Below are positions 1-23,595 of a stretch of 25,833 bases of DNA, in pieces (within the stretch, counting starts at the first letter, position 1; every line of letters starts with the position of its first letter). The notes under the pieces are model-generated. The model was given only the letters and a program-made list of their open reading frames with translations. It did no database searches and was not told where the DNA came from. The position numbers and the translations under genes are program-made. The DNA comes from Candidatus Bipolaricaulia bacterium (GTDB taxonomy: Bacteria > Bipolaricaulota > Bipolaricaulia > JBHIAT01). The DNA lies in NCBI GenBank assembly GCA_046758705.1, contig JBHIAT010000034.1, positions 1 through 25,833 of the forward strand, read 5' to 3'.

Positions 1-21
1 GACAGACACGATTTTGGACAT
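1..21 (-). CDS. 5' end of a gene leaving the window (MSKIVSV...), probably a MinD/ParA-family ATPase
   Basis: Minus strand reads AGGAGG-taagct-ATG TCC AAA ATC GTG TCT GTC just downstream of the 56 stop. MSKIVSV resembles the N-terminus of MinD/ParA proteins that continue HSxRGGTGKS. Only 7 codons are visible. Confidence 0.45.
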
Positions 22-55
22 AGCTTACCTCCTGAATCCAGATGGAGTCGCGAAT

Positions 56-1186
56 CTATTCGTCGGATCTTTCCTCTCTACTCTTTCTACTCCTCCTCAG
101 CTGTTTCGCCTTTTCTTTCAGCTGTTGGAAGTACTCGGTTTCGGTGATCTTGGCCACCTGACGCGTCTTCTTGGCTTCGTCGATCTCGATGCGCAACTCC
201 TTGATCTTCTGTTTTAACTTCTGTTCACGGATGTACGCCTCAAGAGCAGCGGTCGCCAGCAAGGACAGCGCCTCGATCATCTGTTGTGTCTCCGGGTCGA
301 ACGGGATCACCTCGTCGGTTTCAGGGTGTTGCGCATTGATCAGTTGCAGCACACCGATCACCCGATTGCGGTTGTTTTTCAGCGGGATGGTCAACATGGA
401 GGTGGAGCGGTAGCCGATCTGTTTGTCAAATTCTCGGGGGCCGGAGAAGTCGAAGTTCTCGGTCTGGTAGATGTCGGGAATGTTGATCGATTCTCCAGTT
501 AACACCACATGGGTGCAGACATTTTGGTGATTGGGCTCGCCGGTCCTCTGATCGTAGAGGTGGAGCGGCGAGAAGGAAGCCTCCTTGCCGGCGGTTCCGC
601 CCACCGCGAGATTCAGCGAATCGGTGCGTGCGATCACGAACTCTAGGCGATCGTCTTTGGTGCGCAGGTACAGGGTGCCGGCATCGGCATTGCATAACGA
701 CTTGGCCTCCAGTACGATCATCTCCAGCAGTTGATCGAAGTCCTTTTCCGCCGACATCGCCACGCCGATGGGAATCACGACGTTCACTAGCTCATCGGAT
801 CGCTGCTTTTCCTGCTTGATTTGCTGCAGGTACATCCATTCCTGTTCGCGTAACCGCTTCTGCCCGGTGATGTCCCGGAAGATTCCCGTGTAGAATGACG
901 CTCCACCTAATTCTGCTTCGGCCACCACCACTTCCATGGGAAAGCTGGAACCATCGACACGCCGTCCGACGGCCTGTTGACGTTCTCCAGTGAGCAGCTT
1001 TGGAAGCATCACATCTGCATCCTGAGGTTCCAGAAGAATCCCGATCGGCTGACCGATCAATTGGCTCTTCTGATAGCCAAAAATCACCTCCGTATTTGGG
1101 TTAAATGTGATGATAGAGAATCCTGGCTTCGCAAATATGATAATCGCATCTGTTGCTGATCTCACGAGAGCGTTTGTCTTTGCCAT
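56..1186 (-). CDS. PAS-GAF sensor-like protein with conserved C-terminal coiled-coil tail and no catalytic output domain (paralog 1)
   Basis: PAS (TDAII...NPNTEVIFGY...GRRVDGSSFPME...FRDIT), then GAF (SAEKDFDQLLEMIV...NADAGTLY...FDFSG...YRSTSMLTIPL...VIGVLQLIN), then tail ELRIEIDEAKKTRQVAKITETEYFQQLK. Start set at MAKT (1186) by homology to paralog 3; the ORF is open to 1210. Confidence 0.85.
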   Translation of the reverse strand: MAKTNALVRSATDAIIIFAKPGFSIITFNPNTEVIFGYQKSQLIGQPIGILLEPQDADVMLPKLLTGERQQAVGRRVDGSSFPMEVVVAEAELGGASFYTGIFRDITGQKRLREQEWMYLQQIKQEKQRSDELVNVVIPIGVAMSAEKDFDQLLEMIVLEAKSLCNADAGTLYLRTKDDRLEFVIARTDSLNLAVGGTAGKEASFSPLHLYDQRTGEPNHQNVCTHVVLTGESINIPDIYQTENFDFSGPREFDKQIGYRSTSMLTIPLKNNRNRVIGVLQLINAQHPETDEVIPFDPETQQMIEALSLLATAALEAYIREQKLKQKIKELRIEIDEAKKTRQVAKITETEYFQQLKEKAKQLRRSRKSREERSDE

Positions 1187-1293
1187 GGATTTCTCAAGCA
1201 AATTCATCACCTATCATCAGGGTTCTTGTCCGTAGGGCTATAACTATAATCGGCCACCTCCTCTCAGGTGCATCACAGGGTGCTGCGAGTTAG

Positions 1294-1339
1294 AAGTTTG
1301 GGGTATTATACCATGATCTCTACCTTTTCATCCAACTAT
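1294..1339 (-). promoter_or_regulatory. Extended -10 promoter (TGgTATAAT), copy 1 of a duplicated promoter segment
   Basis: Minus strand TGGTATAAT at 1313-1305. The segment is similar to 3972-4016 and lies upstream of paralog 1. Confidence 0.6.
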
Positions 1340-1377: not shown

Positions 1378-2838
1378 TTATGGGTGGGATCTTTCCCGCT
1401 TGTTTCTGAGCTCTTTTGACTTTTGCTTCAGCTGTTGGAAGTAATCGGTATCGGTGATCTCGGCCACCTCACGCGCCTTCTTGGTTTCGTCGATCTCGAT
1501 GCGCAGCTCCTCGATCTGTTGCTTTAACTTCTGTTCACGGATGTACGCCTCCAGGGCAGCAGTCGCCAGCGAGGATAGCGCCTCGACCATCTGTTGTGCC
1601 CCTGGGTCGAATGGGATCACCTCGCCGGTTTCAGGGTGTTGCGCGTTGATCAGTTGAATGACACCGATCACCTGATCGCGGTTGTCTTTCAGCGGGACGG
1701 TCAGCATGGAGGTGGAGCGATAGCTGGTCTGCTTGTCGAAGTCCCGGGTACCGGAGAAGTCGAAGCGCTCGGCCTGATAGACGTCGGAGATGTTGATCGA
1801 TTCCCCGGTTAAGGTCGCATAAGTGCAGACATTTCGGCGGTTGGGCTCACCGGTTGTCTCATCGTAGAGGCGAAGCGGCGGGAGGGAGGCCTCTTTACCG
1901 GTGGTCCCGCCCATGGCGAGATTCAGCGAATCGGTGCGTACAATTACGAACTTCAGGCGGTCGTCTTCGGTGCGCAGATACAGGGTGCCGGCGTCGGCGT
2001 TGCACAGCGACTTGGCCTCGAGCAGGATCATCTCCAACAGTCTATCGAAGTCTCTTTCCGCCGACATCGCAACGCCGATGGGAATCACGACGTCCAACAG
2101 TTCATCAGCGCGTTGCTTCTTCTGCTTGATTTGCTGCAGATATGCCAGTTCCTGTTCACGAAGACGCTTCTGCTCGGTGATGTCCCGGAAGGTCCCCGTG
2201 TAGAATGACGCTCTACCCAGTTCCGCTTTGGTCATCACAACTTCCATGGGAAAGTTGGAACCGTCGGCACGCTGTCCGACCACCTCGTGACGTTCTCCGG
2301 CGAGCAGTTTCGGAAGTCTCGGGTCGACGTCCTGAGGAACGGAGTCACCGTTTTCTTGAGGTTTCAGAAGTATCCCGATCGACTGACCGATCAATTGATG
2401 TTCTTGATAGCCAAAGATCGCTTCTGCACTTGGGCTGGTTGTGATAATGGATAATCCTCGCTTGGCAAACATGATGATTCCATCCGTGGCGGTGATGCGG
2501 AGATTGTTGATGGTCACCTTCTGGCGGTTGATGGTTCGCCAGCCACGCCACACGATGAAGACCAGGCTGAAGTACAGAACGACAAAGCCAATGCCTATGG
2601 CACCATAAGTGAGCCAGCGAAGGTTACGGACGTTTTGACTGATGCTGGGAATGGAATAAGGGTCCGCTGGTTTCAGGGTGCCTGCGACCATGGCGTCGCT
2701 GTGGTCTCTCAAAAGCTCGATGTTACGGTTGAGGCTGGTCGAAAAGAATATCAATATGATGGCGAGCGCGAGGGCCAGTATGATCACAAAACTGATGACC
2801 GAAAACTGAACCACCAGGTTCTCTGTTAAGCGTTTCAT
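1378..2838 (-). CDS. Membrane-anchored (2 TM) PAS-GAF protein with conserved tail (paralog 2)
   Basis: Two hydrophobic segments (FSVISFVIILALALAIILIFF; WLTYGAIGIGFVVLYFSLVFIVW), then the same PAS, GAF and tail as its neighbours. ATGA overlap with paralog 3. Confidence 0.87.
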   Translation of the reverse strand: MKRLTENLVVQFSVISFVIILALALAIILIFFSTSLNRNIELLRDHSDAMVAGTLKPADPYSIPSISQNVRNLRWLTYGAIGIGFVVLYFSLVFIVWRGWRTINRQKVTINNLRITATDGIIMFAKRGLSIITTSPSAEAIFGYQEHQLIGQSIGILLKPQENGDSVPQDVDPRLPKLLAGERHEVVGQRADGSNFPMEVVMTKAELGRASFYTGTFRDITEQKRLREQELAYLQQIKQKKQRADELLDVVIPIGVAMSAERDFDRLLEMILLEAKSLCNADAGTLYLRTEDDRLKFVIVRTDSLNLAMGGTTGKEASLPPLRLYDETTGEPNRRNVCTYATLTGESINISDVYQAERFDFSGTRDFDKQTSYRSTSMLTVPLKDNRDQVIGVIQLINAQHPETGEVIPFDPGAQQMVEALSSLATAALEAYIREQKLKQQIEELRIEIDETKKAREVAEITDTDYFQQLKQKSKELRNKRERSHP

Positions 2839-3956
2839 TCGCCGGATCGTTCCTCTCTGCTCTCTTTCAGCTCTTTGGCCTTTTCCTTCAGTTGTTGGAA
2901 GTAGTCGGTTTCGGTGATCTCGGCCACCTGGCGCACCTTCTTGGTTTCGTCGATCTCGATGCGCAGTTGCTCGATCTGTTGCTTCAGCTTCTGCTCACGG
3001 ATGTACGCCTCGAGAGCGGCGGTGGCCAGCGAGGACAGCGCCTCGATCATCTGTTGTGTCCCTGGGTCGAATGGGATCACCTCGCTGGTTTCAGGGTGTT
3101 GAGCGTTGATCAGTTGCAGTACACCGATCACCTGATTGCGATTGTTTTTCAGCGGGATAGTCAACATGGAGGTGGAGCGGTAGCCGGTCTGTTTGTCAAA
3201 GTCCCGGGTACCAGAAAAGTCGAAACTCTCGGCCTGATAGACATCGGGGATGTTGATCGATTCACCGGTTAAGGCCGCATGGGTGCAGACATTTTGGTGG
3301 TTGGGTTCGCCAGTTGTCGCATCGTAGAGGTTGAGCCACGAGAAGGAAACCTTTTTGCTGGCAGTCCCGCCCATGGCGAGATTCAGCGAATCGGTACGTG
3401 CGATCACGAACTTCAGACAGTCGTTTTGGGTGCGCAGATACAGGGTGCCAGCGTCGGCGTTGCATAACGACTTGGCCTCCAACAGAATCGTCTCCAGCAG
3501 TCGATCGAAATCCTTTTCCGCTGTCATAGCAACGCCGATGGGAATCACGACGTTCAATAGTTCATCAGCGCGCTTGTTTTCCTGTTCGATTCGCTGCAAG
3601 TACGCCAGTTCCTGTTCACGTAGCCGCTTGCGCTCGGTGATGTCTCGAAACGTCCCTATGTAGAACCATGCGCCATCCAATTCCGCTTCGGTCACTACGA
3701 CTTCCATGGAAAAGGTGGAACCATCCGCACGTCGTCCGACCACTTGTTGACGTTCCCCGGTAAGCAGCTTTGGAAGCATCACGTCTGCGCGCTGAGGTTC
3801 CAGAAGCATGCCGATCGGCTGACCCACCAATTGGCTCCTCTGATAGCCAAAGATCGCCTCTGTACTTGGGCTCAGTGTAATGATAGAGAACCCTCGTTTT
3901 GCAAACATGATAATTGCGTCTGTCGCTGATCTTGCGATAGCGTCCGTTTTTGCCAT
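2835..3956 (-). CDS. PAS-GAF protein with conserved tail (paralog 3)
   Basis: Colinear with paralog 1 over its full length; RBS GGAGG upstream of the ATG. Confidence 0.88.
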   Translation of the reverse strand: MAKTDAIARSATDAIIMFAKRGFSIITLSPSTEAIFGYQRSQLVGQPIGMLLEPQRADVMLPKLLTGERQQVVGRRADGSTFSMEVVVTEAELDGAWFYIGTFRDITERKRLREQELAYLQRIEQENKRADELLNVVIPIGVAMTAEKDFDRLLETILLEAKSLCNADAGTLYLRTQNDCLKFVIARTDSLNLAMGGTASKKVSFSWLNLYDATTGEPNHQNVCTHAALTGESINIPDVYQAESFDFSGTRDFDKQTGYRSTSMLTIPLKNNRNQVIGVLQLINAQHPETSEVIPFDPGTQQMIEALSSLATAALEAYIREQKLKQQIEQLRIEIDETKKVRQVAEITETDYFQQLKEKAKELKESREERSGE

Positions 3957-4183: not shown

Positions 4184-4247
4184 ATGGTTGACAATATTGG
4201 TTAGCATATTTGGTTACCAGTTGTTGACAATCTAGATTGTTGACAAT
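4184..4247. promoter_or_regulatory. Three quasi-palindromic operator-like boxes (ATTGTTGACAAT consensus)
   Basis: ATGGTTGACAAT 4184-4195, GTTGTTGACAAT 4220-4231 and ATTGTTGACAAT 4236-4247. A perfect palindrome ACAATCTAGATTGT at 4227-4240 links boxes 2 and 3. Confidence 0.65.
4203..4230 (-). promoter_or_regulatory. Possible divergent (leftward) sigma70 promoter
   Basis: Minus strand TTGTCA (4230-4225), 16-nt spacer, TATGCT (4208-4203), upstream of the 4170 ATG. Confidence 0.4.
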
Positions 4248-4269
4248 TAGAATAGCTCTTTAGTATAAT
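4240..4269 (+). promoter_or_regulatory. Consensus sigma70/sigmaA promoter of the long operon
   Basis: TTGACA 4240-4245, 18-nt spacer, TATAAT 4264-4269; RBS AGGAGG before the ATG at 4332. Confidence 0.8.
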
Positions 4270-4331: not shown

Positions 4332-5156
4332 ATGAAGAAGATCCTGGTCGTATTGTCAGAGTGGGGCTACTGGGGTGAAGAGCTGGTCGGCCCGCTGGAA
4401 GTGTTCGACAAGCAGGGATATGAATCGGTCTTTATGACCCCCACGGGCAAGAAGCCGCCGGCGCTTCCGCCCAGTATGGATTCCACTTATCTGGACCCGC
4501 CGTTGGACAGGTGCGTCACTTCAGAGTATTATGCAAAGAAGACCCGCGAAATCGATGCATCAGATCGGCTGGCTAACCCGCTCAATCTGTCTGGGTGGTT
4601 CCCCGAACGGCCCTATTACAGCGCTAAAAATTACCTGCGGGAGTTCGAGGCTTACAACAATGCCCTTGATGGCGCGTATGAGGAGTTAGGAGAATACGAT
4701 ACTCTGCTCATTGTGGGCGGAAGTGGCCCCATGGTTGACATGGTCAACAATCAGAGGTTCCACGACGTGATCCTCGGCTTTTACAAGGTGAATAAGCCGA
4801 TCGCAGCCGAGTGCTACGGCGTGACCTGTCTGGCGTTCGCTCGGGACTGGTATGATCGCAAGAGTATCATCTGGGGCAAGCACGTCACCGGGCACCCGCT
4901 CGAGTATGACTACAAAGATGGCACAGGATTTATTCCAAGTGGTAACCTTAATTTTGGTCCGCCCTTCTACCCCCTGGAGCACATTCTGCGCGATGCCGTC
5001 GGTCCTGATGGGCGGTATCACAGCAATGTCGGCAGGGTGACTTCCGTGATTGTCGACTATCCGTTTATCACGAGTCGGTCCACCGCATCCTCCCATCTCT
5101 GTGGCGAGAAGTTGGTGGAGGTCTTAGAGGAAGATCTTACGCGGTTTGGTTGGTAG
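4332..5156 (+). CDS. DJ-1/PfpI (class I glutamine amidotransferase-like, Hsp31-size) protein
   Basis: KKILVVLS...GYWGEEL (acidic residue), IVGGSG, nucleophile elbow IAAECYG, GKHVTG, VIVDYPFITSR. Confidence 0.88.
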   Translation: MKKILVVLSEWGYWGEELVGPLEVFDKQGYESVFMTPTGKKPPALPPSMDSTYLDPPLDRCVTSEYYAKKTREIDASDRLANPLNLSGWFPERPYYSAKNYLREFEAYNNALDGAYEELGEYDTLLIVGGSGPMVDMVNNQRFHDVILGFYKVNKPIAAECYGVTCLAFARDWYDRKSIIWGKHVTGHPLEYDYKDGTGFIPSGNLNFGPPFYPLEHILRDAVGPDGRYHSNVGRVTSVIVDYPFITSRSTASSHLCGEKLVEVLEEDLTRFGW

Positions 5157-5184
5157 ACCCAATCGTTCAGGAAAGGCTGGAGTG

Positions 5185-6891
5185 ATGCCTAGCAAAAGTG
5201 GACGGTTTGCGATCATCGAGCAACTGCTTGCTGATGGGATTGAATATATGTTTGGCAACCCCGGCACGGTCGAGCAAGGGTTCCTGGATTCGTTGGAGGA
5301 CTATCCGGAATTCAAGTACATTCTGACCCTGCATGAGACGGTGGCGGTGGCGGCAGCCGACGGTTACGCCCGTGCCACCAAAAAGCCAGCGGTCGTGCAA
5401 CTCCATAGTGGTGTTGGTCTGGGCAACGGGATTGGGATGATGTACCAGGCCAAGCGTGGCCATGCGCCGTTGGTGGTCATCGCTGGAGAGTCCGGCATCC
5501 GATACGATTCTATGGATGCGCAGATGGCCGCAGACCTGGTGGCTATGGCCAAGCCCGTTACCAAATGGGCGACCCGGGTTGTCGATCCATCGTCGGTGTT
5601 GCGGGTGCTGCGCCGAGCCATCAAGATAGCGGCCACGCCCCCCATGGCACCCGTATTCGTCTGCCTGCCGATGGACGTTCTCGATGCCCCTAATGAGGAA
5701 CCGGTGGTTCCGACCTCGTTCCCGGTGACGCGAGTGGCTCCTGAGCCGGATCAGATCGCAGCAGCGGCGGCTATACTGGCCGCTGCTGAAACGCCGATGA
5801 TCATCATGGGGGACGGTGTGGCGTCTTCTGGTGCGCAGGCCGAATTGGCCCGTGTGGCCGAACTCATCGGAGCTGAGGTGTGGGGCGCGGACTCATCCGA
5901 GGTGAACATGAGCGCCACGCATCCTCTGTTCAAGGGGTTGCTGGGCCACATGTTTGGGGACCATAGCCGCCCGATTACGTCGGAGGCAGACGCGGTTCTG
6001 ATTTGTGGAACCTACGTTCTCCCCGAGGTGTTCCCCGCGCTGTCCGACGTGTTTGGCTCGGGAACTCAGGTGATTCACATCGACCTGGATGCCTATGAGA
6101 TTGCCAAGAATTTTCCAGTGGATCTCGGGCTGGTCAGTGATCCGAAAATCACGCTCGGAAAGCTGGTCGCCGCGCTCGAAACGACCATGACGTCCGAACA
6201 GAAAGACACGGCAGACACCCGGACAGCTCGGATCGCTGCCGAGAAGGAGCAGGAGCTGGCCGCTCAGCGTGACGCGGACAAGGCGGTTCGCGACGCCGTA
6301 CCTCTGTACGCGTCACGGTTTATGGAGGAACTCGCGGTCCAGCTGCCCCAAGACGCGATCGTCTTCGACGAAGCATTGACCGTGTCTCCCGAACTGACTC
6401 GGTATATACCGCCAACGACACCGGGACACTACTTCCAGACGCGGGGTGGTTCGTTAGGCGTCGGCATTCCTGGGGCGATTGGCGTCAAGCTGGCCCACCC
6501 GGACAAAACGGTGATCGGGTTCACGGGCGATGGTGGCAGCATGTACACGATCCAGGCGCTCTGGACCGCCGTGCACCACAATGTCAATGCCAAGTTCGTG
6601 ATTTGCAACAATCACAGTTATCAGCTGCTGAAGCTCAACATCATGCAGTACTGGCGCGAGCGCGACATACCGGATCACGAGTTCCCAGCGTCGTTCGACC
6701 TGGCCGACCCCGACATCGGCTTCGCCGAGTTGGCCAACGCGATGGGCGTTCAGGCAGTGCGCGTTGAAACGCCGGATCAGGCTGCCCCGGCCATCCGTCA
6801 GGCACTGGAACACGACGGGCCGTTCCTGATCGATATGGTGATCGGTAACGAGGTGCCGGGTCACAAGGTCGGGTGCAAGTGTGGTCAGTAG
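5185..6891 (+). CDS. Thiamine diphosphate-dependent enzyme, benzoylformate decarboxylase-like
   Basis: FGNPGTVE, LHETVAVAAADGYA, and ThDP motif GDGG...NN (GDGGSMYTIQALW...ICNN). Start moved to the ATG at 5185. Confidence 0.9.
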   Translation: MPSKSGRFAIIEQLLADGIEYMFGNPGTVEQGFLDSLEDYPEFKYILTLHETVAVAAADGYARATKKPAVVQLHSGVGLGNGIGMMYQAKRGHAPLVVIAGESGIRYDSMDAQMAADLVAMAKPVTKWATRVVDPSSVLRVLRRAIKIAATPPMAPVFVCLPMDVLDAPNEEPVVPTSFPVTRVAPEPDQIAAAAAILAAAETPMIIMGDGVASSGAQAELARVAELIGAEVWGADSSEVNMSATHPLFKGLLGHMFGDHSRPITSEADAVLICGTYVLPEVFPALSDVFGSGTQVIHIDLDAYEIAKNFPVDLGLVSDPKITLGKLVAALETTMTSEQKDTADTRTARIAAEKEQELAAQRDADKAVRDAVPLYASRFMEELAVQLPQDAIVFDEALTVSPELTRYIPPTTPGHYFQTRGGSLGVGIPGAIGVKLAHPDKTVIGFTGDGGSMYTIQALWTAVHHNVNAKFVICNNHSYQLLKLNIMQYWRERDIPDHEFPASFDLADPDIGFAELANAMGVQAVRVETPDQAAPAIRQALEHDGPFLIDMVIGNEVPGHKVGCKCGQ

Positions 6892-6933: not shown

Positions 6934-7407
6934 ATGAGTAACTTAGCACCGCTTACGGAGTCCGAAGTGAGACAGTTTGTTGAGGATTGGTATAGGAAGC
7001 TGGACGTTCACGCGCCAATGTCTGAGCTCCTGGCCATGCTCGCCGACGAGGAGTTGGAGATGCGGTTTCCGGAGGGCACGCTGTACGGCCATGCCGAATT
7101 TGGAGGCTGGTATCAGGGTTCGGCCGAGAACTCCAAGAACTATCCCGGTGTGGTCAACATCTTCTTCGATGAGGTCCACACTGTGAAAGAGGTGGCGGTC
7201 GATATTTCAGGAGATCAGGCCAACGTCAAGGTGGTGGTCAAGTGGGAAGCCAGTGTATGGAACCCACCTGCTGCCAAAAGCGTGCGGATCATCCTGGATG
7301 CGGCACAGACATGGGTGATGAAGCGCTCGCCTGAGACAAGCAAGCCGGTCATCGTGACCTATATCGTTGATGATCTAAGCTACTATGAGGGTTCGGCCAA
7401 GCTTTAG
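6934..7407 (+). CDS. NTF2-like/SnoaL-fold protein
   Basis: Short helix EVRQFVEDWYRKLD, then MRFPEGTLYGHAEF and beta-rich C-terminal half ending QTWVM; RBS GAGGGG. Confidence 0.7.
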   Translation: MSNLAPLTESEVRQFVEDWYRKLDVHAPMSELLAMLADEELEMRFPEGTLYGHAEFGGWYQGSAENSKNYPGVVNIFFDEVHTVKEVAVDISGDQANVKVVVKWEASVWNPPAAKSVRIILDAAQTWVMKRSPETSKPVIVTYIVDDLSYYEGSAKL

Positions 7408-9576: not shown

Positions 9577-9610
9577 CCCGTGGAGAATCCAACAGTAAGG
9601 AGGATATCCC

Positions 9611-14623: not shown

Positions 14624-16441
14624 ATGGATCACATGAGCTTCTCGTTTTCGGACACGATTGCCGGGTACGTGACCCAGGTTGACTCGGACAAGAGAACCTT
14701 CGGCCTCAAGACGAGCGATGGGAGAGAGTTCCAGGTTGCCTTAACCCCGACCACCTATGCAGAGCTGGTGCGCAATCTGGGGGAGCCTTTTCATGACGGT
14801 ACCGGTCAGATGGGGGATATGCTCGTCCCCAATCGGTACTTGTTTGCGTATGGTGTTTTCTATCCTGAGGGCGACGAGCACAACTTTGAAGCCAAGCATC
14901 TGATCTTCCTGGGCCGGAAAGCGGACCAGTATCGTTTCGAGAAACAAGACTGGTGGATCAAGCAGGTGCATGCGCTGGGCGATTTTTACCTGGAATCGGA
15001 GTTTGGGGAGCGCGAAATTGATTTTCGGGGCTATCGCACCCAATTGTCTCTGGGGGGGGCCAAGACAGAGGATGTCCGCCAGGAAACCGACACCATTTCG
15101 CGCTTGGTCTACGGTTTTGCCTCGGCCTACTTGATGACCGGGGAAGACCGTTACCTGGAGGCTGCCGAGAAAGGGACCGAATATCTGCGCGACCACATGC
15201 GTTTTGTTGACGTGGACGAAGGGATCGTCTACTGGTACCACGCGATTGATGTGAGGGGGCAGCTTGACGATAAAATCTTCGCTTCGGAATTCGGGGATGA
15301 TTATGACGCGATCCCGGCGTATGAACAGATCTACGCGCTGGCCGGTCCCACCCAAACCTACCGGGCGACCGGTGATCCGCTGATTCTGAGCGATATCGAG
15401 CGGACCATGGACCTGTTCAGCCGCTTTTTCCTGGACCAGGAAGGAGAAGGATACTTTTCACACATCGATCCGATCACCCTCGATCCCCGCAGCGAGACGT
15501 TGGGCCCCAACCGGGCGCGCAAGAACTGGAACTCCGTCGGCGATCACGCGCCGGCCTATCTGATCAATCTGTGGCTGGCGACCGGCGAGGAGCAGTACGC
15601 GGACATGCTGGCCTACTGCGCGGACGCGATCGAAAAACATTTCCCGGATTATCAGCATAGTCCGTTTGTTCAGGAGCGGTTCCGCGAGGATTGGAGCCAC
15701 GACACGACATGGGGGTGGCAGCAAAACCGCGCCGTCGTGGGGCACAACCTCAAAATTGCCTGGAACCTGATGCGCATCCACCACCTGCGCCCCAAGGACC
15801 GGTACGCGGCCCTGGCCCGAAGGATCGCGGAGGTCATGCCCGCAGCCGGCAGTGACCAACAGCGTGGCGGGTGGTACGACGTCATGGAGCGCTTACTGGG
15901 CGAAGGAGAAGAGGTCCATCGCTATGTATGGCATGACCGTAAAGCCTGGTGGCAGCAAGAACAGGCGATCTTGGCCTACCTGATCCTGGCCGGTTCCCTG
16001 GGGGATCCTGAATATCTCCGATTGGCGCGTGAATCGTCGGCGTTCTACAACGCTTTCTTCCTCGACCACGACGCCGGCGGTGTTTACTTCAACGTTCTGG
16101 CCAATGGCCTTCCCTACCTGCTGGGGACCGAGCGGTTCAAAGGCAGCCATTCGATGAGCGGTTATCACTCGTTCGAACTGGCCTACCTGGCCGCCGTCTA
16201 TACTAACCTGCTGATCACCAAGCAGCCGATGGATTTCTACTTTAAGCCCAAGCCGGGAGGGTTTAAGGATCGTATCTTGCGGGTTCAGCCAGACATTCTT
16301 CCGCCCGGCAGCGTAAGCATCGGTGAGGTGTGGGCCAACGGGGAAGCGTATTCCGATTTCGACGCGGACGGCCTGACGGTCAAACTGCCGGACACGAAAG
16401 AAGCGTTGAGGATCAAGGTCCGCATCGTTCCCAACCAGTAG
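14624..16441 (+). CDS. AGE (N-acylglucosamine 2-epimerase) superfamily protein, Slr1855-like
   Basis: SRLVYGFASAY..TG...YL..A..G..YL, GHNLKIAW, KAWWQQEQA, KG.H...YHS. Extra N- and C-terminal beta domains. Confidence 0.85.
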   Translation: MDHMSFSFSDTIAGYVTQVDSDKRTFGLKTSDGREFQVALTPTTYAELVRNLGEPFHDGTGQMGDMLVPNRYLFAYGVFYPEGDEHNFEAKHLIFLGRKADQYRFEKQDWWIKQVHALGDFYLESEFGEREIDFRGYRTQLSLGGAKTEDVRQETDTISRLVYGFASAYLMTGEDRYLEAAEKGTEYLRDHMRFVDVDEGIVYWYHAIDVRGQLDDKIFASEFGDDYDAIPAYEQIYALAGPTQTYRATGDPLILSDIERTMDLFSRFFLDQEGEGYFSHIDPITLDPRSETLGPNRARKNWNSVGDHAPAYLINLWLATGEEQYADMLAYCADAIEKHFPDYQHSPFVQERFREDWSHDTTWGWQQNRAVVGHNLKIAWNLMRIHHLRPKDRYAALARRIAEVMPAAGSDQQRGGWYDVMERLLGEGEEVHRYVWHDRKAWWQQEQAILAYLILAGSLGDPEYLRLARESSAFYNAFFLDHDAGGVYFNVLANGLPYLLGTERFKGSHSMSGYHSFELAYLAAVYTNLLITKQPMDFYFKPKPGGFKDRILRVQPDILPPGSVSIGEVWANGEAYSDFDADGLTVKLPDTKEALRIKVRIVPNQ

Positions 16442-16478: not shown

Positions 16479-16814
16479 ATGGAGATCAACACCAAGACGG
16501 TCGAACAAGTCACCGTGGTACAGCTGACCGGTGAACTGGACGGAAGTACGGCGCCTACAGCTCAAGAGCAGATATTGCCCCTGATCCAGGAAGGGGGTCG
16601 GATCCTCCTGGATATGACCGGTGTGGCTTACATGTCCAGCGCGGGTTTGCGGATGCTGTTGTTGCTGTACCGACAGACGAGGAGTCATAACGGGCGTATC
16701 GCTTTGGTAGGTCTTTCCGAAGAGATTCAGGACACGATGTCCGTGACTGGATTCCTCGACTTTTTCACCACCCACGAGACGCTCGATTCGGGATTGGAAG
16801 CATTGAATCGCTAG
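16479..16814 (+). CDS. STAS-domain anti-sigma factor antagonist (RsbV/SpoIIAA-like) 1
   Basis: LTGELD...ILLDMTGVAYMSSAGLR with phosphoacceptor Ser; TGFLDFF. Confidence 0.93.
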   Translation: MEINTKTVEQVTVVQLTGELDGSTAPTAQEQILPLIQEGGRILLDMTGVAYMSSAGLRMLLLLYRQTRSHNGRIALVGLSEEIQDTMSVTGFLDFFTTHETLDSGLEALNR

Positions 16815-16820: not shown

Positions 16821-18929
16821 ATGGAACGCATCGATATCTATCCGACACACCGGCATGGGGAATTCAAGCTGCGGCGTGGCCGGCCGTTTCCGTTCGGAGT
16901 CACCTTCGTGCCGGGGGGCGTCAACTTTTCGATCTTTTCGCGCCATGCCAACTCCTGTGTTCTGGTGCTGTTCGAAAAGGGCCAGCCCGAACCGATGGTG
17001 GAAATCCCGTTTCCGGACGAGTTCCGGATCGGGAACGTCTTCGCCATGATCGTATTCGATCTGGATTACGAAAATATCGAATACGGCTTTCGCATGGACG
17101 GACCGTACAACCCGGTGGAAGGTCACCGGTTTGACACCACGAAGACTCTCATGGATCCATACGCCAAGGCGATCGGGGGTCGGGATGTTTGGGGGGAATC
17201 GCCCGATTGGGATGACATCTACCCGCATCGCGCCCGTCTCGTTTATGACGACTTTGACTGGGAATCAGACCGGCCTCTCGAAATACCGATCGAGGATCTG
17301 ATTATCTACGAGATGCACGTCCGCAGCTTCACCCGGGATCCATCCTCCGGAGTGAAGCATCCAGGGACATTTGCCGGCATCCGCGAGAAGATTCCCTACC
17401 TCCAAGAGTTGGGTGTCAACTGCATCGAGCTGATGCCCATCTATGAATTTGATGAATTCGAAAACAGCCGACCCAACCCGGAAACGGGAGAGCAGCTGTT
17501 GAATTATTGGGGCTACAGCACGGTCGGCTTCTTTGCGCCCAAGGCCGGCTACGCGGCCACGGGCAGGTTTGGGATGCAGGTCGATGAGTTCAAAGCGCTG
17601 ATCAAAGAACTGCACAAGCATGGCATCGAGGTCATTCTTGACGTGGTGTTCAACCACACAGCGGAAGGCAATGAGAACGGCCCCACCATCTCGTTTCGGG
17701 GTATAGACAACCAAACCTACTACATGCTCACATCGGACGGCTATTACCTGAACTTCAGTGGCACCGGCAACACCCTGAACTGCAACAACCCGATCGTTCG
17801 CAACATGGTGCTCGACTGTCTTCGCTACTGGGCGGCGGAATACCACATCGACGGCTTCCGCTTTGATCTTGCCGCCATCCTGGGACGCGACCCCCAGGGC
17901 GCTCCGCTGGAAAACCCACCGCTGCTCGAAACGCTCGCGTTCGACCCGATTCTGGGCAAGTGCAAACTCATCGCTGAGGCATGGGACGCAGGTGGCCTCT
18001 ATCAGGTCGGCTCCTTCCCCGCCTACGGGCGTTGGGCCGAGTGGAACGGCAAGTACCGCGATACACTCCGCAAATTCCTGAAAGAGGATCTCGGACAGGT
18101 TGGGGGGATAGCACAGCGACTCCAGGGTTCGCCGGATCTCTATCGGGGCCGCGGACCGACCGCGTCCATCAATTTTGTCACGTGTCACGACGGTTTTACG
18201 CTGGCCGACCTGGTTTCGTACAATGAGAAGCACAATGAAGCCAACGGCGAAAACAACAACGATGGGGCCAACGATAACCACAGCTGGAACTGTGGTTGGG
18301 AAGGACCGACCGACGACCCGGAAATCAACGCGCTTCGGCGCCGACAGATCAAAAATGCCGTGGCCATGATGATGGTGAGCCAGGGTGTGCCTATGATCCT
18401 CATGGGCGATGAACTCGGGCGAACCCAGCACGGCAACAACAACACCTATTGCCACGACAACGAACTCAACTGGCTGAACTGGACGCTGTTGGAATCCAAC
18501 GAGGATTTGTTTCGGTTTTTCAAAAACTGTGTTGCCTTCCGCAAAGCTCATCCCGTGCTGAGAAACAGTTCGCACTTCCGCAATGAGGATTACGTAGGAA
18601 GTGGCTATGCCGATATCACCTGGCACGGAAGTCAGGCATGGAACGCCGACTGGTCCGGCTCCAGTCGCACCCTGGCTTTCATGCTGTGTGGTAAACATGC
18701 CAAGGGCGGCACGGTAGAGGACAATTACATCTATGTGGCCATGAATATGCACTGGGAAAGCCACATGTTCGAACTGCCGGGATTGCCGGAGGGCATGAAG
18801 TGGCATGTGTTTGCCAATACCGGTGCCGCCTCACCCGAGGATATCTGGGAGCCCGAAACCGAACCTGTCCTAAACGATCAGTGCCTTCTCATAGGGGACC
18901 GATCTGTGGCTATCCTGGTGGGCAGATAA
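16821..18929 (+). CDS. glgX: Glycogen debranching enzyme/isoamylase (GH13)
   Basis: GVNFSIFS, IIYEMHVR, NYWGY, LDVVFNHTAEG, catalytic DGFRFD / IAEAWD / TCHDGFTL, GNNNTYCHDNELNW. Confidence 0.96.
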   Translation: MERIDIYPTHRHGEFKLRRGRPFPFGVTFVPGGVNFSIFSRHANSCVLVLFEKGQPEPMVEIPFPDEFRIGNVFAMIVFDLDYENIEYGFRMDGPYNPVEGHRFDTTKTLMDPYAKAIGGRDVWGESPDWDDIYPHRARLVYDDFDWESDRPLEIPIEDLIIYEMHVRSFTRDPSSGVKHPGTFAGIREKIPYLQELGVNCIELMPIYEFDEFENSRPNPETGEQLLNYWGYSTVGFFAPKAGYAATGRFGMQVDEFKALIKELHKHGIEVILDVVFNHTAEGNENGPTISFRGIDNQTYYMLTSDGYYLNFSGTGNTLNCNNPIVRNMVLDCLRYWAAEYHIDGFRFDLAAILGRDPQGAPLENPPLLETLAFDPILGKCKLIAEAWDAGGLYQVGSFPAYGRWAEWNGKYRDTLRKFLKEDLGQVGGIAQRLQGSPDLYRGRGPTASINFVTCHDGFTLADLVSYNEKHNEANGENNNDGANDNHSWNCGWEGPTDDPEINALRRRQIKNAVAMMMVSQGVPMILMGDELGRTQHGNNNTYCHDNELNWLNWTLLESNEDLFRFFKNCVAFRKAHPVLRNSSHFRNEDYVGSGYADITWHGSQAWNADWSGSSRTLAFMLCGKHAKGGTVEDNYIYVAMNMHWESHMFELPGLPEGMKWHVFANTGAASPEDIWEPETEPVLNDQCLLIGDRSVAILVGR

Positions 18930-18963: not shown

Positions 18964-19302
18964 ATGGCGTTCGACGCAGCTTTAGAAATGGCCCACGGTA
19001 TCGCTAAAATCACCTTGTCTGGAGAACTGGATGCGAATGGAGCGCCGACCTTCAAGTCGGAGGTGGAGAAAGCCGCGGCCGAGCAACCGAAACGCCTTGT
19101 CTTACTGATGCAAGATCTGGAATATATGGCCAGTGCCGGTCTGCGGATCCTCATCTTCGCCAAGCAAAAGATGGGCACCGACGTTGACATCTATGTGGTT
19201 GGTGCTCAGGAGCCGGTGATGGAAACCCTTCAACTGTCCGGATTCCACCAAAGCGTCATTGCGCTGGATACGTATGATGCCGCCGAGATAGAGAACATAT
19301 AG
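18964..19302 (+). CDS. STAS-domain anti-sigma factor antagonist 2
   Basis: LSGELDA...LEYMASAGLR...LSGF. Confidence 0.92.
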   Translation: MAFDAALEMAHGIAKITLSGELDANGAPTFKSEVEKAAAEQPKRLVLLMQDLEYMASAGLRILIFAKQKMGTDVDIYVVGAQEPVMETLQLSGFHQSVIALDTYDAAEIENI

Positions 19303-19329: not shown

Positions 19330-19767
19330 ATGGAGTCTTTAACCGTACCTGGCACGCTAGATTCTCTGAAAACTATCAGAGAGTACGTAACGGCGGCAGC
19401 CGATGAAGCTGACCTGGACAAAAAAGCCGCCTATCGCTTGCGCCTAGCCGTGGACGAAATAGCCACCAATGTGATTGTTCACGGTTATAATGAAGCGGGT
19501 CGCGAAGGGATGCTGGACTTAAACGCCGATATCGACGAAAACGCTCTGACGATCTGTCTTGAGGATACCGGTATGTCCTACGACCCTCGCCAGAATCCGA
19601 CCCCGGATGATTTGGACGAGCCCCTAGAACAGCGGCCGATTGGCGGGCTGGGCGTGTATCTCGCCATACAAGGTGTCGACAGGTTCACTTATGAACGCAT
19701 TGGGGACCGGAATCGAAACATCTTTGTGGTAAATCGGAAAGCGACCGCATCCGAGGAAGGAGAATAA
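19330..19767 (+). CDS. RsbW/SpoIIAB-like Ser/Thr kinase (anti-sigma factor, HATPase)
   Basis: LRLAVDEIATNVIVHGY (N box), LEDTG..YDP, GGLGVYL, YER...RN. Confidence 0.93.
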   Translation: MESLTVPGTLDSLKTIREYVTAAADEADLDKKAAYRLRLAVDEIATNVIVHGYNEAGREGMLDLNADIDENALTICLEDTGMSYDPRQNPTPDDLDEPLEQRPIGGLGVYLAIQGVDRFTYERIGDRNRNIFVVNRKATASEEGE

Positions 19768-19780: not shown

Positions 19781-20659
19781 ATGGCAACCGAATCAGAGAG
19801 GGAAGAGCTGCTGAAACTCGAACGTGAGCTGCAAATCGCCCGGAAAATTCAGGCTGATTTCTTGCCCGATACGCTGCCGCAGCCAGATGGCTGGGAGATC
19901 GCTGCCCGCTTCCATCCGGCGCGTGAGGTGGCCGGGGATTTTTACGACGCCTTCCCCCTCGCGCAAGACAGGCGGGTGGGCTTTGTCATCGCCGATGTCT
20001 GCGACAAAGGTGTGGGTGCCGCGCTGTTCATGGCCCTGATTCGCAGCTTGGTCCGGGCTTTTGCCCAACAGCACTATTCGTTGAGCTGGATGGACGAGCT
20101 TTCGCCCGATTGGCTCAGTGACGACGCTCCAGGCCGTTCGGTGGAGCAGCGGCGGGCGGTCCTTTCAACGGGCACAACCGCCCTCAAAAATGCTGTGGTG
20201 CTCACCAATAATTACATCCTCCAAAATCACGAGCAGGCGAATATGTTTGCCACCCTTTTCTTTGGCGTGCTGGACCCGGCCACTGGCTCGCTGAACTACG
20301 TGAATGGTGGACATAATCCGCCATTCATCGTCGGCCCGGACGGTGTGAAAGCGCGCCTCACCCCCACCGGACCGGCAGTCGGCATGTTTGCCGACGTGGA
20401 TTTTAACATCGAGCAAGCCCAGCTCGACCCCGGTGATATCCTGATCACCTACACCGACGGTGTGCCCGAGGCGCGGGACCCAGATGGAAAATTCTTCACC
20501 GAAAAACGGCTGCTTTCGCTAGTGGAGCCGTCTGCTCCCTCGGCTACAGCGTTGCTGGACCGCATCGAAACGAATCTGGACGCCCACATTGCCGAGGCAG
20601 ACCAATTTGATGACATTACCATGCTGGCTGTACGGCGGGCACCCGCATCCGAAGCATAG
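19781..20659 (+). CDS. PP2C/SpoIIE-family Ser/Thr phosphatase (RsbU/IcfG-like) with no sensory domain
   Basis: ELQIARKIQADFLP, VAGDFYD, VIADVCDKGVGAALFM, YVNGGHNPP, YTDGV.EA, DDITML. Only about 12 residues precede the conserved ELxxAxxIQ helix. Confidence 0.93.
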   Translation: MATESEREELLKLERELQIARKIQADFLPDTLPQPDGWEIAARFHPAREVAGDFYDAFPLAQDRRVGFVIADVCDKGVGAALFMALIRSLVRAFAQQHYSLSWMDELSPDWLSDDAPGRSVEQRRAVLSTGTTALKNAVVLTNNYILQNHEQANMFATLFFGVLDPATGSLNYVNGGHNPPFIVGPDGVKARLTPTGPAVGMFADVDFNIEQAQLDPGDILITYTDGVPEARDPDGKFFTEKRLLSLVEPSAPSATALLDRIETNLDAHIAEADQFDDITMLAVRRAPASEA

Positions 20660-20667
20660 CTGCGGAT

Positions 20668-23595
20668 ATGCCGTCCGATGAGCTGTTCAGCCGTGAAGAG
20701 GTGCTGGGCGGCCTGCCCGCCAGACAGGCACATACCTTACTCTTCCTCATTGAGAGCCGCACGGCGCATCTGGTAGCACAATCGCGGCGCGCCATGGAGA
20801 TCTTCCTCACCGAACAGGCGGCTGAGGAGCGCGATCTCGCGTTCTTCGAGGCGTTCAGCTTAGGGCGCCAACCTCCACTCCGCCCCACCATCCAGGATCT
20901 GGAACGCTATGCCCCCCAGTGGGCATCCCTGGTGCCGGACAACCCCAGGCTGCAGGCCGCTATCGCCCACATCCTGGGCGAGAAGTATGACTTCACTTAC
21001 CCAGCGGTGCCGGGCATCCGGGCGGCGTTGGGGGCGGACGAGGAAGCGGTACAGCAAGCTTACCATCGCCTGTACCGCGAACCGCTGGAGACGATCTTTG
21101 CCTCACGGACCCCACTGCCCGACCGACTGCGCTGGACCTGGACCGCGCTGGCCGAGTGGCTGGAGTCCCTGTCGCCTTTCTGGACCGCTTTTGCGTTGAC
21201 CCTCACCGAGATCGTTGCCGAGAGCATCCTGGCGTTGCCCATTGCCGTGGCCGGTATCGGCCCGCTGGCCGGTATTGTGGTCCTGGTCGTGCTGGGCGTG
21301 GTCAACGTGCTGACCATCGCTTCTCTGGCCGAAGCCGTCTCGCGAAGCGGCACCATTCGATACGGCAGCGGCTTCATCGGGCGGTTGGTGTCGGACTACC
21401 TGGGGAGCGCCGGTTCCCTCATCCTCACGTTAGCGGTGGCCACCATCTGTTTCGCGCACCTGGTGGCTTACTATATTGGAGTATCGACCACACTGGCGGA
21501 TGCCACACATGTGTCCGCTGCGGTGTGGACCGGGCTGCTGTTCCTGATCGGCCTGTACTTTCTGTCACGCGAGGCGCGAGAATCGATCCACTCCACCGTT
21601 GCCTCTTCATTGCTCGTGGGTGGGATCAACATCGGCCTGATCCTGATCCTCTCGATTCTCGCCTTCCCCCACGTGCGATCAGCAAACCTGCTGTATATGG
21701 AAGTGCCGTTCCTCGGTGGCCATCATTTCGAGCCCGAACTTGTGGAGACGCTGTTCGGCGTTATCATCGTGGGATACCTCGGACACCTGTCGGTGGGCAG
21801 CTCGGCCAGGGTCGTGCTCCGCCGTGACCCCAGTGCGCGCGCGCTGATCTGGGGCAGCATGGCGGCGGAGGTTGTCGTCATCGGCCTCTATTCCATCTGG
21901 GTGTTAGCCATTAACGGGGCGGTCGCTTCGGAGGTATTGGTTCATGAGTCGGGCACCGCCCTGGTCCCATTGGCGGAACAGGTTGGCCCCAGCGTGCTCT
22001 GGTTGGGATCTGCCCTGGTCATCCTCGGTATGGGTATGGCCTCGATCCATTACTCCGTCGGCCTGTTCAATCTGGTCCGTGAACGGCTTCCCAGACAGCA
22101 TCGCCCGATCGTGATGCTGCCCCACAAGCACGGGAAACTGCTGTTCCACCGACGTAGCAAACCCAGCGGCAGCCCGCGCATCGGTCTGACCTACCTGGGA
22201 CTCGATGACACCCAGTCCCAGCCGCAGTTCCGCCTCGATGTCCAACTGGGTGGCAACACCCATCACCTGGAAACGACTGTTGCCGATCACTGGCAGATCA
22301 CCGAGCTCTTTGACCGGCTTCCGGAGCTGCGCCAGCATCGAGTTCGCCTGACCCTGGGGATCCTGGACGCCAACCCGGAGAGTGTCCGCCTGCGAATCCA
22401 TTCGCCGATGCACCTGACCTATGAGGGAAACTGGGATGTCATCGGACTGAACATGGCCGATCTGCTCACCCTGCCCGACTCGCTGCGTCGACTGGTCAAC
22501 TGGATCATGCGCCAGGGAGACGTGAACCTGGCCCAAGTGGTGGCACACACCGGCGGGGATGAAGCAAGCACCCGCACCATGTTGGAGACGTTGATAGAGC
22601 AAGGCTTCGTGCGGGAAGTGAGTGTGGAAGGCGAGAACGAGGTACGCTACCGGGCGCGTCTTGCCCCCAAACGGCGACGGCAGCTGTCTCAAGAGATCTG
22701 GCAGGCTCTGGACGAGACGGTGGAAGTGCCGGCCGGTGCTCGTGTTGGCTCCGTGCGGCTCTGGGAAGGCATGCGTGTGCTGGCACAACGTATCTGGGAG
22801 GTGCTGGGCGAGCGCGGACGGTTCTTGCTGTCGGTGAGTCCGATGATGATCGTCTTCGTGGTGACCGAGTGGCTCCTCCTTAATCATGTGGAATCATTTG
22901 TCGAGGCGCTCGAATTTGCTGGCGTGATTCCCGCGTCCCTGTTTGCCGGCATTTTTCCAGTTTTGCTGTTATTTGCCAGCCGGCGAAAGAGCGAGTTCGT
23001 GCTGAGTGGGGTCTTCCGGTTCCTGGGGCATCCATGGTTCATCGCGAGCATCTACCTCCTGATCCTGGCCAGTCTGCTTTTCCACGGTCTGATCATCTGG
23101 CACAATCCCGTGGAGCGCGCCAGCGCATTGATCGCCGCTATCTTGGTGTTGGGAGTGACCATCGCGATGGTCCGCCGGGGAGCGTTCGCTTCACGCATGG
23201 TGGTGGAACTGCGCGAAGAGCTGAGTGAGGACGGAGAAGGACAGGCGGTCTTCTCCATTACCGCCGACGGTCAACCGACGGCGACGCAGGTACGGTTGGG
23301 ATATCCTGACGGGGAGCAACAGTACCGGACGGCCATCGGCGAGGTGCCGGAGTTCGCTTCGCTGCGCTATGCAGCGTTTCACCTGCCGGAGGACCAGGCA
23401 CACGAGCTCAAGGTGTGGGTACATGCGGTTACCCCGGAAGGGGAGTCTGAGGGGTTGCCTGCGCTGTTAGATCTGCACTGTGGAAACGAGACGACGCGGT
23501 TTGATCTGAGGCTGTCCGGCGGCCAGGTGGTGCTGCCCGCCACCAACAAGGCGTGCCAGTTAGAGATCACATTTTCAGAGCTGTCCCGTTCTTGA
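20668..23595 (+). CDS. Large membrane protein: amino-acid permease-like (APC) core with soluble N-terminal, internal (winged-helix) and C-terminal domains
   Basis: About 12 hydrophobic segments starting at TLTEIVAESILALPIAVAGIG (permease TM1-like), interrupted by a roughly 240-aa hydrophilic insert that includes an HTH-like segment. Confidence 0.75.
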   Translation: MPSDELFSREEVLGGLPARQAHTLLFLIESRTAHLVAQSRRAMEIFLTEQAAEERDLAFFEAFSLGRQPPLRPTIQDLERYAPQWASLVPDNPRLQAAIAHILGEKYDFTYPAVPGIRAALGADEEAVQQAYHRLYREPLETIFASRTPLPDRLRWTWTALAEWLESLSPFWTAFALTLTEIVAESILALPIAVAGIGPLAGIVVLVVLGVVNVLTIASLAEAVSRSGTIRYGSGFIGRLVSDYLGSAGSLILTLAVATICFAHLVAYYIGVSTTLADATHVSAAVWTGLLFLIGLYFLSREARESIHSTVASSLLVGGINIGLILILSILAFPHVRSANLLYMEVPFLGGHHFEPELVETLFGVIIVGYLGHLSVGSSARVVLRRDPSARALIWGSMAAEVVVIGLYSIWVLAINGAVASEVLVHESGTALVPLAEQVGPSVLWLGSALVILGMGMASIHYSVGLFNLVRERLPRQHRPIVMLPHKHGKLLFHRRSKPSGSPRIGLTYLGLDDTQSQPQFRLDVQLGGNTHHLETTVADHWQITELFDRLPELRQHRVRLTLGILDANPESVRLRIHSPMHLTYEGNWDVIGLNMADLLTLPDSLRRLVNWIMRQGDVNLAQVVAHTGGDEASTRTMLETLIEQGFVREVSVEGENEVRYRARLAPKRRRQLSQEIWQALDETVEVPAGARVGSVRLWEGMRVLAQRIWEVLGERGRFLLSVSPMMIVFVVTEWLLLNHVESFVEALEFAGVIPASLFAGIFPVLLLFASRRKSEFVLSGVFRFLGHPWFIASIYLLILASLLFHGLIIWHNPVERASALIAAILVLGVTIAMVRRGAFASRMVVELREELSEDGEGQAVFSITADGQPTATQVRLGYPDGEQQYRTAIGEVPEFASLRYAAFHLPEDQAHELKVWVHAVTPEGESEGLPALLDLHCGNETTRFDLRLSGGQVVLPATNKACQLEITFSELSRS

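Follow-up and report, generated by a model that had tools for sequence, protein, structure and literature searches.

An enlarged icfG-type gene cluster in Candidatus Bipolaricaulia, with a partner switch that may act on an AGE-like enzyme

What does a partner switch control when its genes lie among those of metabolic enzymes? The icfG cluster of Synechocystis, linked since the 1990s to the metabolism of carbon and glucose, poses this question, and its enzymes have no assigned function. Work on it is reportedly due to Beuf in 1994, Shi in 1999 and Gonzalez in 2001. A stretch of 25,833 nt from a Candidatus Bipolaricaulia bacterium (GenBank assembly GCA_046758705.1, contig JBHIAT010000034.1), here called the window, carries such a cluster in enlarged form and offers a testable answer to its role.

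The window contains 22 co-directional open reading frames (ORFs) at 4332-23595 on the plus strand, with intergenic gaps of -62 to +54 nt. The 5' part of this operon comprises 15 genes, encoding two DJ-1 proteins, a thiamine diphosphate (ThDP) enzyme, eight SnoaL/NTF2-fold proteins (seven by Pfam, the eighth, at 6934-7407, by Atlas features and structure), a tautomerase, an aldo-keto reductase (AKR), a GMC oxidoreductase and a VOC protein. According to Pfam and NCBIfam, the 3' part encodes, in order, an AGE-like protein, a STAS protein (STAS1), GlgX, a second STAS protein (STAS2), an RsbW-like kinase, a PP2C phosphatase and a 975-aa membrane protein. An earlier note on this DNA had described a 19-kb operon of 15 chemistry genes with glgX, two STAS proteins, a kinase, a sensor-less PP2C and a permease-HTH protein, and had matched its core to the icfG cluster; both descriptions hold. 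The locus of Synechocystis salina, with which the comparison was made rather than with strain PCC 6803 itself, has the same core at 41-73% identity (AGE 68%, STAS1 55%, GlgX 73%, STAS2 55%, PP2C 46%, kinase 41%). This locus is of the unfused form described below, and so connects the window with the icfG cluster; a published slr1857 primer differs from the start of the window glgX by 3 mismatches in 19. We conclude that the cluster is a real, enlarged icfG-type cassette. We read it as a mobile cassette of three layers, namely a switch, its input and a chemistry; taken as a whole, we regard this reading as evenly poised, and its layers differ in strength.

The first layer concerns the switch. 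Searching species-level genomes with the AGE-like protein gave at least 598 relatives, the best 80 loci of which (60-79% identity, flanks of up to 10 kb) were used for neighbourhood analysis. They come from many Nostocales and also from Spirochaetota, Acidobacteriota, Chlorobiota, Chloroflexota, Pseudomonadota, Campylobacterota, Bacteroidota and others, and fall into two forms. In 37 loci the AGE-like protein is free (about 606 aa), and downstream of it come STAS1 (35 of 37), STAS2 (31), the kinase (29) and PP2C (25). In the other 43 it carries a C-terminal STAS domain, and no kinase, PP2C or free STAS gene was found in any of these within the fetched stretch, which extends at least 9 kb downstream in 33 of them. 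The fused domain matches STAS2 best in 39/43 loci and STAS1 in none, and it also groups on the STAS2 side in a quick tree, whose fused slices carry a few AGE tail residues and which is silent on a single origin of the fusion. The phospho-acceptor Ser is present in 36/36 STAS1 and 32/32 STAS2 sequences and in 11/43 fusions, a further 14 of which have Thr. Other positions persist in the fused domain: Arg61 (43/43), Phe65 (37/43), Lys67 (35/43) and Gln68 (37/43). Since these natural fusions keep an intact active site and lose the kinase, docking of STAS2 most likely switches the AGE-like enzyme on.

A complex model of the window AGE-like protein and STAS2, built from alignments of 29 rows for each partner, supports such docking. 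It scores 0.87, against 0.00 for the best of three controls, at a mark reached by 116 of 157 solved pairs and 2 of 215 mismatched ones, counts that are only rough for the alignments used here. All contacts (100%) are common to the runs, and partner pLDDT does not fall below 89. The modelled interface comprises residues 56-72 and 88-97 of STAS2 and residues 191-199, 209-220 and 283-285 of the AGE-like protein, so that STAS2 would bind through its phospho-site face. In the model Ser57 of STAS2 contacts Asp196, which is invariant among unfused enzymes. Position 198 is Asp or Glu in 28/28 unfused enzymes and Asp in 3/42 fused ones, as expected if an acidic patch repels phospho-Ser. Structure searches returned no solved AGE-STAS complex. 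Several features temper the model: conservation of the AGE interface (0.75) is no higher than that of the whole protein (0.79), the docking face of STAS2 is also its kinase-binding face, which is an alternative reason for its conservation in free STAS2, STAS1 was not among the controls, and the modelled pair resembles the halves of a naturally fused gene, a kind of pair that tends to pass. The kinase, PP2C and STAS motifs are intact in the window, in keeping with a predicted phosphorylation and dephosphorylation of STAS. We therefore propose, and consider probable, a switch in which unphosphorylated STAS2 would dock on the AGE-like enzyme by its Ser57 face, the kinase would phosphorylate Ser57 and release STAS2, and PP2C would restore binding.

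The same genes might instead form a classical partner switch, with the kinase as anti-sigma factor, both STAS proteins as antagonists and the enzymes as mere members of a stress or carbon regulon in the operon. Slr1861, the Synechocystis counterpart of the kinase, has been assigned as an anti-SigC factor that binds and phosphorylates Ssr1600 (Kurkela 2025, PMC12329169), so the output of the icfG cluster, which the earlier note did not know to be resolved, is resolved in part; the targets of Slr1856 and Slr1859 are given as unknown in the same source, and slr1852-1862 forms a single salt-repressed operon (PMC8670252). No sigma factor was found in the window. The host genome has four full-length SigB/F-like ones elsewhere, all under the TIGR02980 cut-off, together with several truncated sigma domains, and the STAS2 interface is the canonical kinase-binding helix. 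The role of Slr1861, the sigma factors of the host and this helix speak for the classical arrangement. It leaves unexplained why 43 kinase-less AGE-STAS2 fusions keep Arg61, Phe65 and Gln68, and it does not account for the score of the complex model. We consider it improbable as the whole explanation, and a sigma-factor output may run in parallel with the enzyme switch. The truncated domains are N-terminal halves (C46:19745, C58:4452, C48:1359, C85:68 and C48:2504), two of them within very long frames, and the genome's only RsbW-like kinase may dock on them.

Fused, kinase-less loci of Nostocales continue into a fusion of receiver and thioredoxin reductase (21 loci) and a cyclic nucleotide (cNMP) histidine kinase (18 loci), as at L038:12620-14281 and L001:17422-18861. 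It is possible that these proteins are an alternative input of the fused loci.

What chemistry would the proposed switch control? A model of the fused homologue of locus L001 (pLDDT 85; the homologue is at the 73% identity level relative to the window protein) has D-mannose isomerase 5x32 as its nearest structure (Z 42.1, rmsd 2.5, 382 residues aligned), followed by cellobiose 2-epimerases. Arg160, Tyr233, Asn303, His308, His374 and His515 are invariant in 70/70 AGE sequences. His374 aligns with His259 of the cellobiose 2-epimerase RmCE, which with His390 is catalytic in the published mechanism and residue assignment (PMC5726027), and His515 aligns with the YH motif of 5x32. Where the GH-x-x-E motif has its Glu, the AGE-like enzymes have an invariant Lys377, and scores against the cellobiose 2-epimerase and mannose isomerase models are 28 and 22 bits, with cut-offs of 800 and 600. 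The retained His, Arg, Tyr and Asn residues together with Lys377 make enediol chemistry on a reducing sugar likely, with a substrate unlike those of the named families, as far as residues can tell. A Glu/Arg charge swap between Lys377 and Glu518 was considered and dropped, since 5x32 lacks an Arg there.

The neighbouring GlgX scores 710 bits against a TIGR02100 cut-off of 640.9 and its Asp/Glu/Asp triad is intact. Among solved structures it matches plant ISA1 best (E 3e-197) and bacterial GlgX and TreX less well, and its clade may be relevant to where plant isoamylases came from. The relevant section of PMC4911114 does not list slr1857 among pullulan-active enzymes. GlgX is present in 74/80 AGE loci, the GH13 nucleophile is kept in 70/70 cluster GlgX proteins, and a copy on a Streptomyces plasmid has glgE, glgB and maltokinase as neighbours. 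Under our reading the GlgX-type enzyme would free reducing ends of alpha-glucan, the AGE-like enzyme would isomerise them through an enediol, and the DJ-1, VOC, ThDP, GMC and SnoaL proteins would carry the ketose or dicarbonyl on to a small final product. Such a pathway would resemble "peeling" by isomerisation and elimination, carried out by enzymes. An anhydrofructose route by GH31 lyase was rejected, as no GH31 protein occurs among the 22 neighbour families scanned.

The accessory genes follow this core closely. Within the 80 AGE loci we found DJ1a in 15, ThDP in 15, the NTF2-fold protein without Pfam match in 12, GMC in 12, VOC in 24 and a DJ-1 of the DJ1b type in 52. In a sample of 251 genomes from one phylum (that of genome G132), DJ1a occurs in 8/9 AGE-positive genomes and 0/242 others, and the close ThDP family occurs in 6 genomes, all among the 9, with one distant ThDP protein (46%) outside; related genomes in these counts are not independent. 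The suspected co-occurrence of the enzymes with the core is thereby confirmed. Cyanobacterial copies carry EthD, CMD, VOC and SnoaL domains, at times fused in one protein, and an EthD-like gene was found in 20/80 and CMD in 13/80 AGE loci. A CMD-EthD-glyoxalase-SnoaL multi-domain family (L056:19201-21732), seen in 12 cyanobacterial loci, is a fused equivalent of the accessory enzymes. The four SnoaL paralogues at 8653-10495 are 36-52% identical, and further relatives occur on host contigs C107, C69, C85, C24 and C201.

Some results count against a glucan pathway. Synechocystis GlgX2 on its own showed no debranching activity and its mutant has no phenotype (bioRxiv 10.1101/2022.11.21.517384), a result that would suit an enzyme dependent on a partner or acting on some other substrate, and just as well one with a different role. 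The tautomerase was found in 0/80 and the AKR (at 45% identity or more) in 1/80 AGE loci. No GT35 glycogen phosphorylase and no clear glgC were found in the host genome, which is 93.9% complete; its glgA and GH57 genes, on the other hand, speak for a glucan link. The chemistry is thus the weakest layer, and we put it forward tentatively, as somewhat less than an even prospect.

The DJ-1, VOC, AKR and GMC families include carbonyl-processing enzymes. The operon could accordingly be an island for reactive-carbonyl detoxification or protein repair with no link to glucan, in which GlgX and the AGE-like protein serve as regulatory scaffolds. The inactivity of GlgX2 alone in vitro agrees with this, as does Lys377 where cellobiose 2-epimerase has Glu after the catalytic His. 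The intact nucleophile and AGE histidines, the prevalence of GlgX in the loci and the glgE, glgB and maltokinase neighbours of the Streptomyces copy do not, and generic detoxification genes would not follow one AGE family so exactly. We judge a detoxification or repair island to be quite improbable.

The remaining layer is the input. As the earlier note had stated, the left arm of the window encodes PAS-GAF proteins without output: three minus-strand paralogues (S1-S3, 74-81% identical) that lack an enzymatic output domain and share a C-terminal tail of about 45 residues. No Pfam or NCBIfam model covers the tail, and its best Atlas score of 0.75 is a lead only. A fourth copy, the frameshifted TM-HAMP-tail remnant S4 on the minus strand at 23629-24041, had escaped the earlier note. 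With E values of 0.001 or lower, a profile from ten tails matched 2297 protein clusters (50% identity), almost all of them in the C-terminal part, and the inputs of tail proteins (seen in the 60 longer of 150 listed) include Cache, CHASE2/3/4, HAMP, GAF, PAS, receiver, MASE1, ECF-S and others. The GAF domain of S3 is 36% identical over 188 aa to that of a GAF-PP2C fusion in a related cluster, so the tail and the phosphatase appear to be alternative outputs of the same sensor.

An Arg-Walker-A MinD-like ATPase accompanies the tail in 29 of 40 hand-picked tail neighbourhoods, and a full permease in 8. Conversely, 80 metagenomic MinD loci include the tail in 47 (31/38 of those of at least 8 kb) and a winged helix in 20. 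Among the 251 genomes, 34 have the tail and 33 MinD, and all 33 MinD genomes have the tail. These neighbourhoods and counts make MinD, not the phosphatase, the constant partner of the tail. The Arg in Walker A and a PG after the sensor-1 DxD are invariant in 19/19 MinD homologues, to which the truncated window MinD is assigned by homology. The permease, with its winged helix as an insert, belongs to the same module; the 975-aa protein has weak Aa_trans (under cut-off) and HTH matches, and its low-confidence model (pLDDT 62) gave no Foldseek match at E 0.001.

Association of this module with the core follows the form of the AGE locus. Tails are present in 15/40 and 22/39 genomes holding AGE loci (one genome counted twice). 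Tail-module genes occur in 8/37 unfused and 0/43 fused loci, and in the 251-genome sample MinD and tail are found together in 4/4 genomes with unfused and 0/5 with fused AGE. Tail proteins lie beside 6/6 sensor-less and 6/26 sensor-fused PP2C entries, two of which are one locus and several of which have short flanks. A Deinococcus plasmid has the gene order of the window with MinD, a winged-helix protein and two tail proteins; this plasmid and two Chloroflexota genomes each carry enzymes, switch, MinD and tails in one run. We predict that the sensor-less PP2C receives signals in trans from PAS-GAF-tail proteins, most likely relayed by the MinD-like ATPase, with winged-helix and membrane proteins as further parts. 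On these genomic associations we favour an input of this kind slightly.

Weighed against it, 29/33 MinD-positive genomes of the phylum sample lack AGE, icfG-type genes occur in 6/80 MinD loci, the six sensor-less PP2C entries represent about two lineages and are not independent, and the Streptomyces cluster has MinD and no tail within 29.8 kb, the last of which favours MinD as the link. The tail, MinD, winged-helix and permease genes may then be an independent signalling or defence module that co-travels with the core, the PP2C being constitutive or otherwise regulated. That the tail and MinD are mostly found without the core suits this alternative, as do the promoter-like elements and decayed copies of the left arm and the placement of Arg-Walker-A ParA in the immunity-linked ConB2 assemblage (10.64898/2026.10.19.760177). 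Independence does not explain why, in Chloroflexota, Deinococcus, Streptomyces and cyanobacteria, the module shares the operon of the core and comes right after the phosphatase or kinase gene, nor why it is missing next to fused, kinase-less loci. We rate it unlikely, though the most serious of the rivals. The expectation that tail sensors would accompany the core is therefore upheld for the kinase-bearing form in several phyla; it fails to the extent that the sensors belong to a separate and wider module.

Tail modules also occur in other settings. In six loci (L283:23076-23843, L237, L239, L248, L249 and L255) a second, more divergent MinD stands in tandem beside the main copy. A cyanobacterial operon of tail protein, sometimes permease, MinD, DUF7005 and a double cNMP protein (TIGR03896), found in L144, L148, L164, L166, L167, L172, L173, L175, L177 and L179, often lies near C39 ABC exporters and DUF4135 proteins, a vicinity that suggests a link to peptide export. 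In the host genome itself, contigs C18 and C90 each end in a C-terminal half of MinD, and the two halves are near-identical. The one on C18 is part of a second tail module (C18:30549-33656, minus strand), with a stand-alone winged helix, an MFS-like protein (weak NTP/NDP-exchanger match) and an ECF-S-HAMP-tail protein, and this module may continue the left end of the window.

The distribution of the cluster bears on its mobility. The AGE gene was not found in 60 genomes of the same class, and its relatives occur on 17 plasmids; the region is therefore best read as a cassette gained by transfer, and vertical inheritance was rejected because of the same 60 genomes. The IS630-family transposase at the right end of the window (Table 1) may mark the edge of the island.

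Between the two arms lies a spacer that the earlier note took for one divergent, operator-laden promoter. The promoter and -10/-35 calls in the window are consensus matches. The GTTGACAAT triplet is real, since three copies of any 9-mer arose in 22/20000 shuffles of the spacer, and a single shared promoter is not supported: two of the three copies are -35 boxes of plus-strand sigma-70 matches scoring 12/12 and 11/12, minus-strand matches reach at most 9/12, a permease remnant takes up about 210 of the 375 bases of the spacer, and S3 and S1 each have their own copy of the extended -10-like element TG-G-TATAAT. Nor is GTTGACAAT upheld as an operator, since the pair does not recur in related loci (it is absent from all 80 AGE loci and from upstream of ten DJ1a genes, with one single copy found). 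A second pair elsewhere in the host genome (C252:1462-1493) precedes a small unrelated ORF. The window has no Rfam match. Its features are collected in Table 1.

Table 1. Features of the window, in order of position
Feature	Position	Strand	Remarks
MinD-like ATPase (Arg-Walker-A family), first 7 codons	1..21	-	Cut by contig end; GGAGG ribosome site upstream; N-terminus fits homologue alignment
S1, PAS-GAF-tail protein	56..1210, likely start 1186	-	
Extended -10-like element upstream of S1	1305..1313	-	Consensus match; duplicated along with gene
S2, PAS-GAF-tail protein with 2 transmembrane (TM) segments	1378..2838	-	Overlaps S3 stop by 4 nt
S3, PAS-GAF-tail protein	2835..3956	-	
Permease remnant, 69 codons	3961..4170	-	Second permease copy; 2.1-kb internal deletion at 13-nt direct repeat
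Extended -10-like element of S3	3982-3990	-	TG-G-TATAAT, consensus match; inside permease remnant
Three GTTGACAAT repeats and tandem sigma-70-like promoters for operon	4187..4269	+	Repeats at 4187, 4223, 4239
DJ1a, ThiJ-like DJ-1	4332..5156	+	Glu and Cys motifs present; tightest accessory partner of core
ThDP enzyme	5146..6891, likely start 5185	+	Nearest solved structures benzoylformate decarboxylases
NTF2/SnoaL-fold protein	6934..7407	+	No Pfam match
Two SnoaL_2 proteins	7443-7862, 7872-8342	+	
4-Oxalocrotonate-tautomerase family protein	8368..8649	+	N-terminal Pro
Four SnoaL ester-cyclase-like paralogues	8653..10495	+	Tandem
Aldo-keto reductase	10548..11594	+	
SnoaL_2 protein	11603..11983	+	
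GMC oxidoreductase	12019..13551	+	FAD motif, His/Asn pair
DJ1b, PfpI-type DJ-1	13568..14143	+	Glu and Cys-His motifs
VOC/glyoxalase-fold protein	14168..14602	+	His/Glu/His/Glu motifs
AGE-superfamily (alpha/alpha)6 enzyme, Slr1855-type	14624..16441	+	Extra N- and C-terminal beta domains
STAS1, Slr1856-type	16479..16814	+	Phospho-acceptor Ser kept
GH13_11 isoamylase-type GlgX, Slr1857/GlgX2-type	16821..18929	+	Catalytic Asp/Glu/Asp intact
STAS2, Slr1859-type	18964..19302	+	Ser57 phospho-acceptor; type fused to AGE-like enzyme elsewhere
RsbW/SpoIIAB-like Ser kinase, Slr1861-type	19330..19767	+	Only stand-alone one found in genome
PP2C/SpoIIE phosphatase, 292 aa, sensor-less	19781..20659	+	Metal-binding motifs intact; only one found in genome
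Membrane protein, 975 aa	20668..23595	+	About 12 hydrophobic segments; winged-helix insert at ~590-690; part of tail/MinD module
S4, TM-HAMP-tail remnant	23629..24041	-	Frameshifted
IS630-family transposase	24688-25758	+	Apparently intact; two partial matches at other contig ends (C227, C40)

If the proposed switch is real, the target of this partner switch is a metabolic enzyme, and the cluster would point to an unknown glucan-linked pathway spread over at least 598 genome stretches and 17 plasmids. The tail family, a large and unnamed receptor output, would gain a concrete readout in this locus. The boldest form of the reading is a sigma-independent chain that would run from output-less receptors through the tail and MinD to the sensor-less PP2C and on to a STAS protein acting as a subunit of the AGE-like enzyme; with an ISA1-like debrancher, this enzyme would feed an undescribed pathway from storage-glucan ends to a dicarbonyl-derived metabolite or signal in many phyla and on plasmids. 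In full this chain is a long shot. No description of an AGE-STAS complex, of the accessory pathway or of the tail family was found in the literature covered, from which subscription journals are largely absent.

Comparison with known systems places each part of the cassette. Like RsbUVW and SpoIIAA-SpoIIAB-SpoIIE, the window encodes a phospho-Ser STAS protein, a GHKL Ser kinase and a PPM phosphatase, and STAS is predicted to dock by the same face with which it contacts the kinase; unlike them, its operon has no sigma factor and the proposed second STAS partner is a metabolic enzyme. The MinD of the tail module shares with the ConB2 ParA/MinD proteins the two motifs that define ConB2 ParA, namely the Walker A Arg and the PG after the sensor-1 DxD, as well as a winged-helix partner (Li, Burroughs, Aravind, 10.64898/2026.10.19.760177). 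The ParA-wHTH (winged-helix) system described there is mainly archaeal, has two genes (ParA and PwHTH1, the latter with a long N-terminal helix) and is proposed to act in immunity; in contrast to the tail module, the available main text of that preprint does not feature HAMP, Cache, GAF, STAS or PP2C. The window GlgX, above the TIGR02100 cut-off, belongs with the GH13_11 isoamylases, among them plant ISA1, Synechocystis GlgX2 and CLg1 GlgX2 (the last summarised in PMC12516185 and perhaps of the same clade). Its AGE-like partner has the (alpha/alpha)6 barrel and catalytic His of the AGE superfamily (5x32 mannose isomerase, cellobiose 2-epimerase, Runsl_4512 and YihS) and differs from these by an identity of 15-19%, extra N- and C-terminal beta domains, a predicted STAS dock and a Lys at the position, two to three residues past the catalytic His, where they have Glu.

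The closest relative remains the icfG cluster of Synechocystis PCC 6803 (slr1852-slr1862), with which the window has in common an operon of DJ-1, AGE-like, STAS, GlgX2, STAS, PP2C and kinase genes. The window differs in its sensor-less PP2C of 292 aa (634 aa in S. salina), where IcfG has a long sensor region at its N-terminus, in the kinase preceding PP2C, an order swapped relative to the S. salina locus, and in having no EthD or CMD gene and 14 further enzyme genes. Finally, the core of the window is attached to tail sensors, MinD and a permease with a winged helix.

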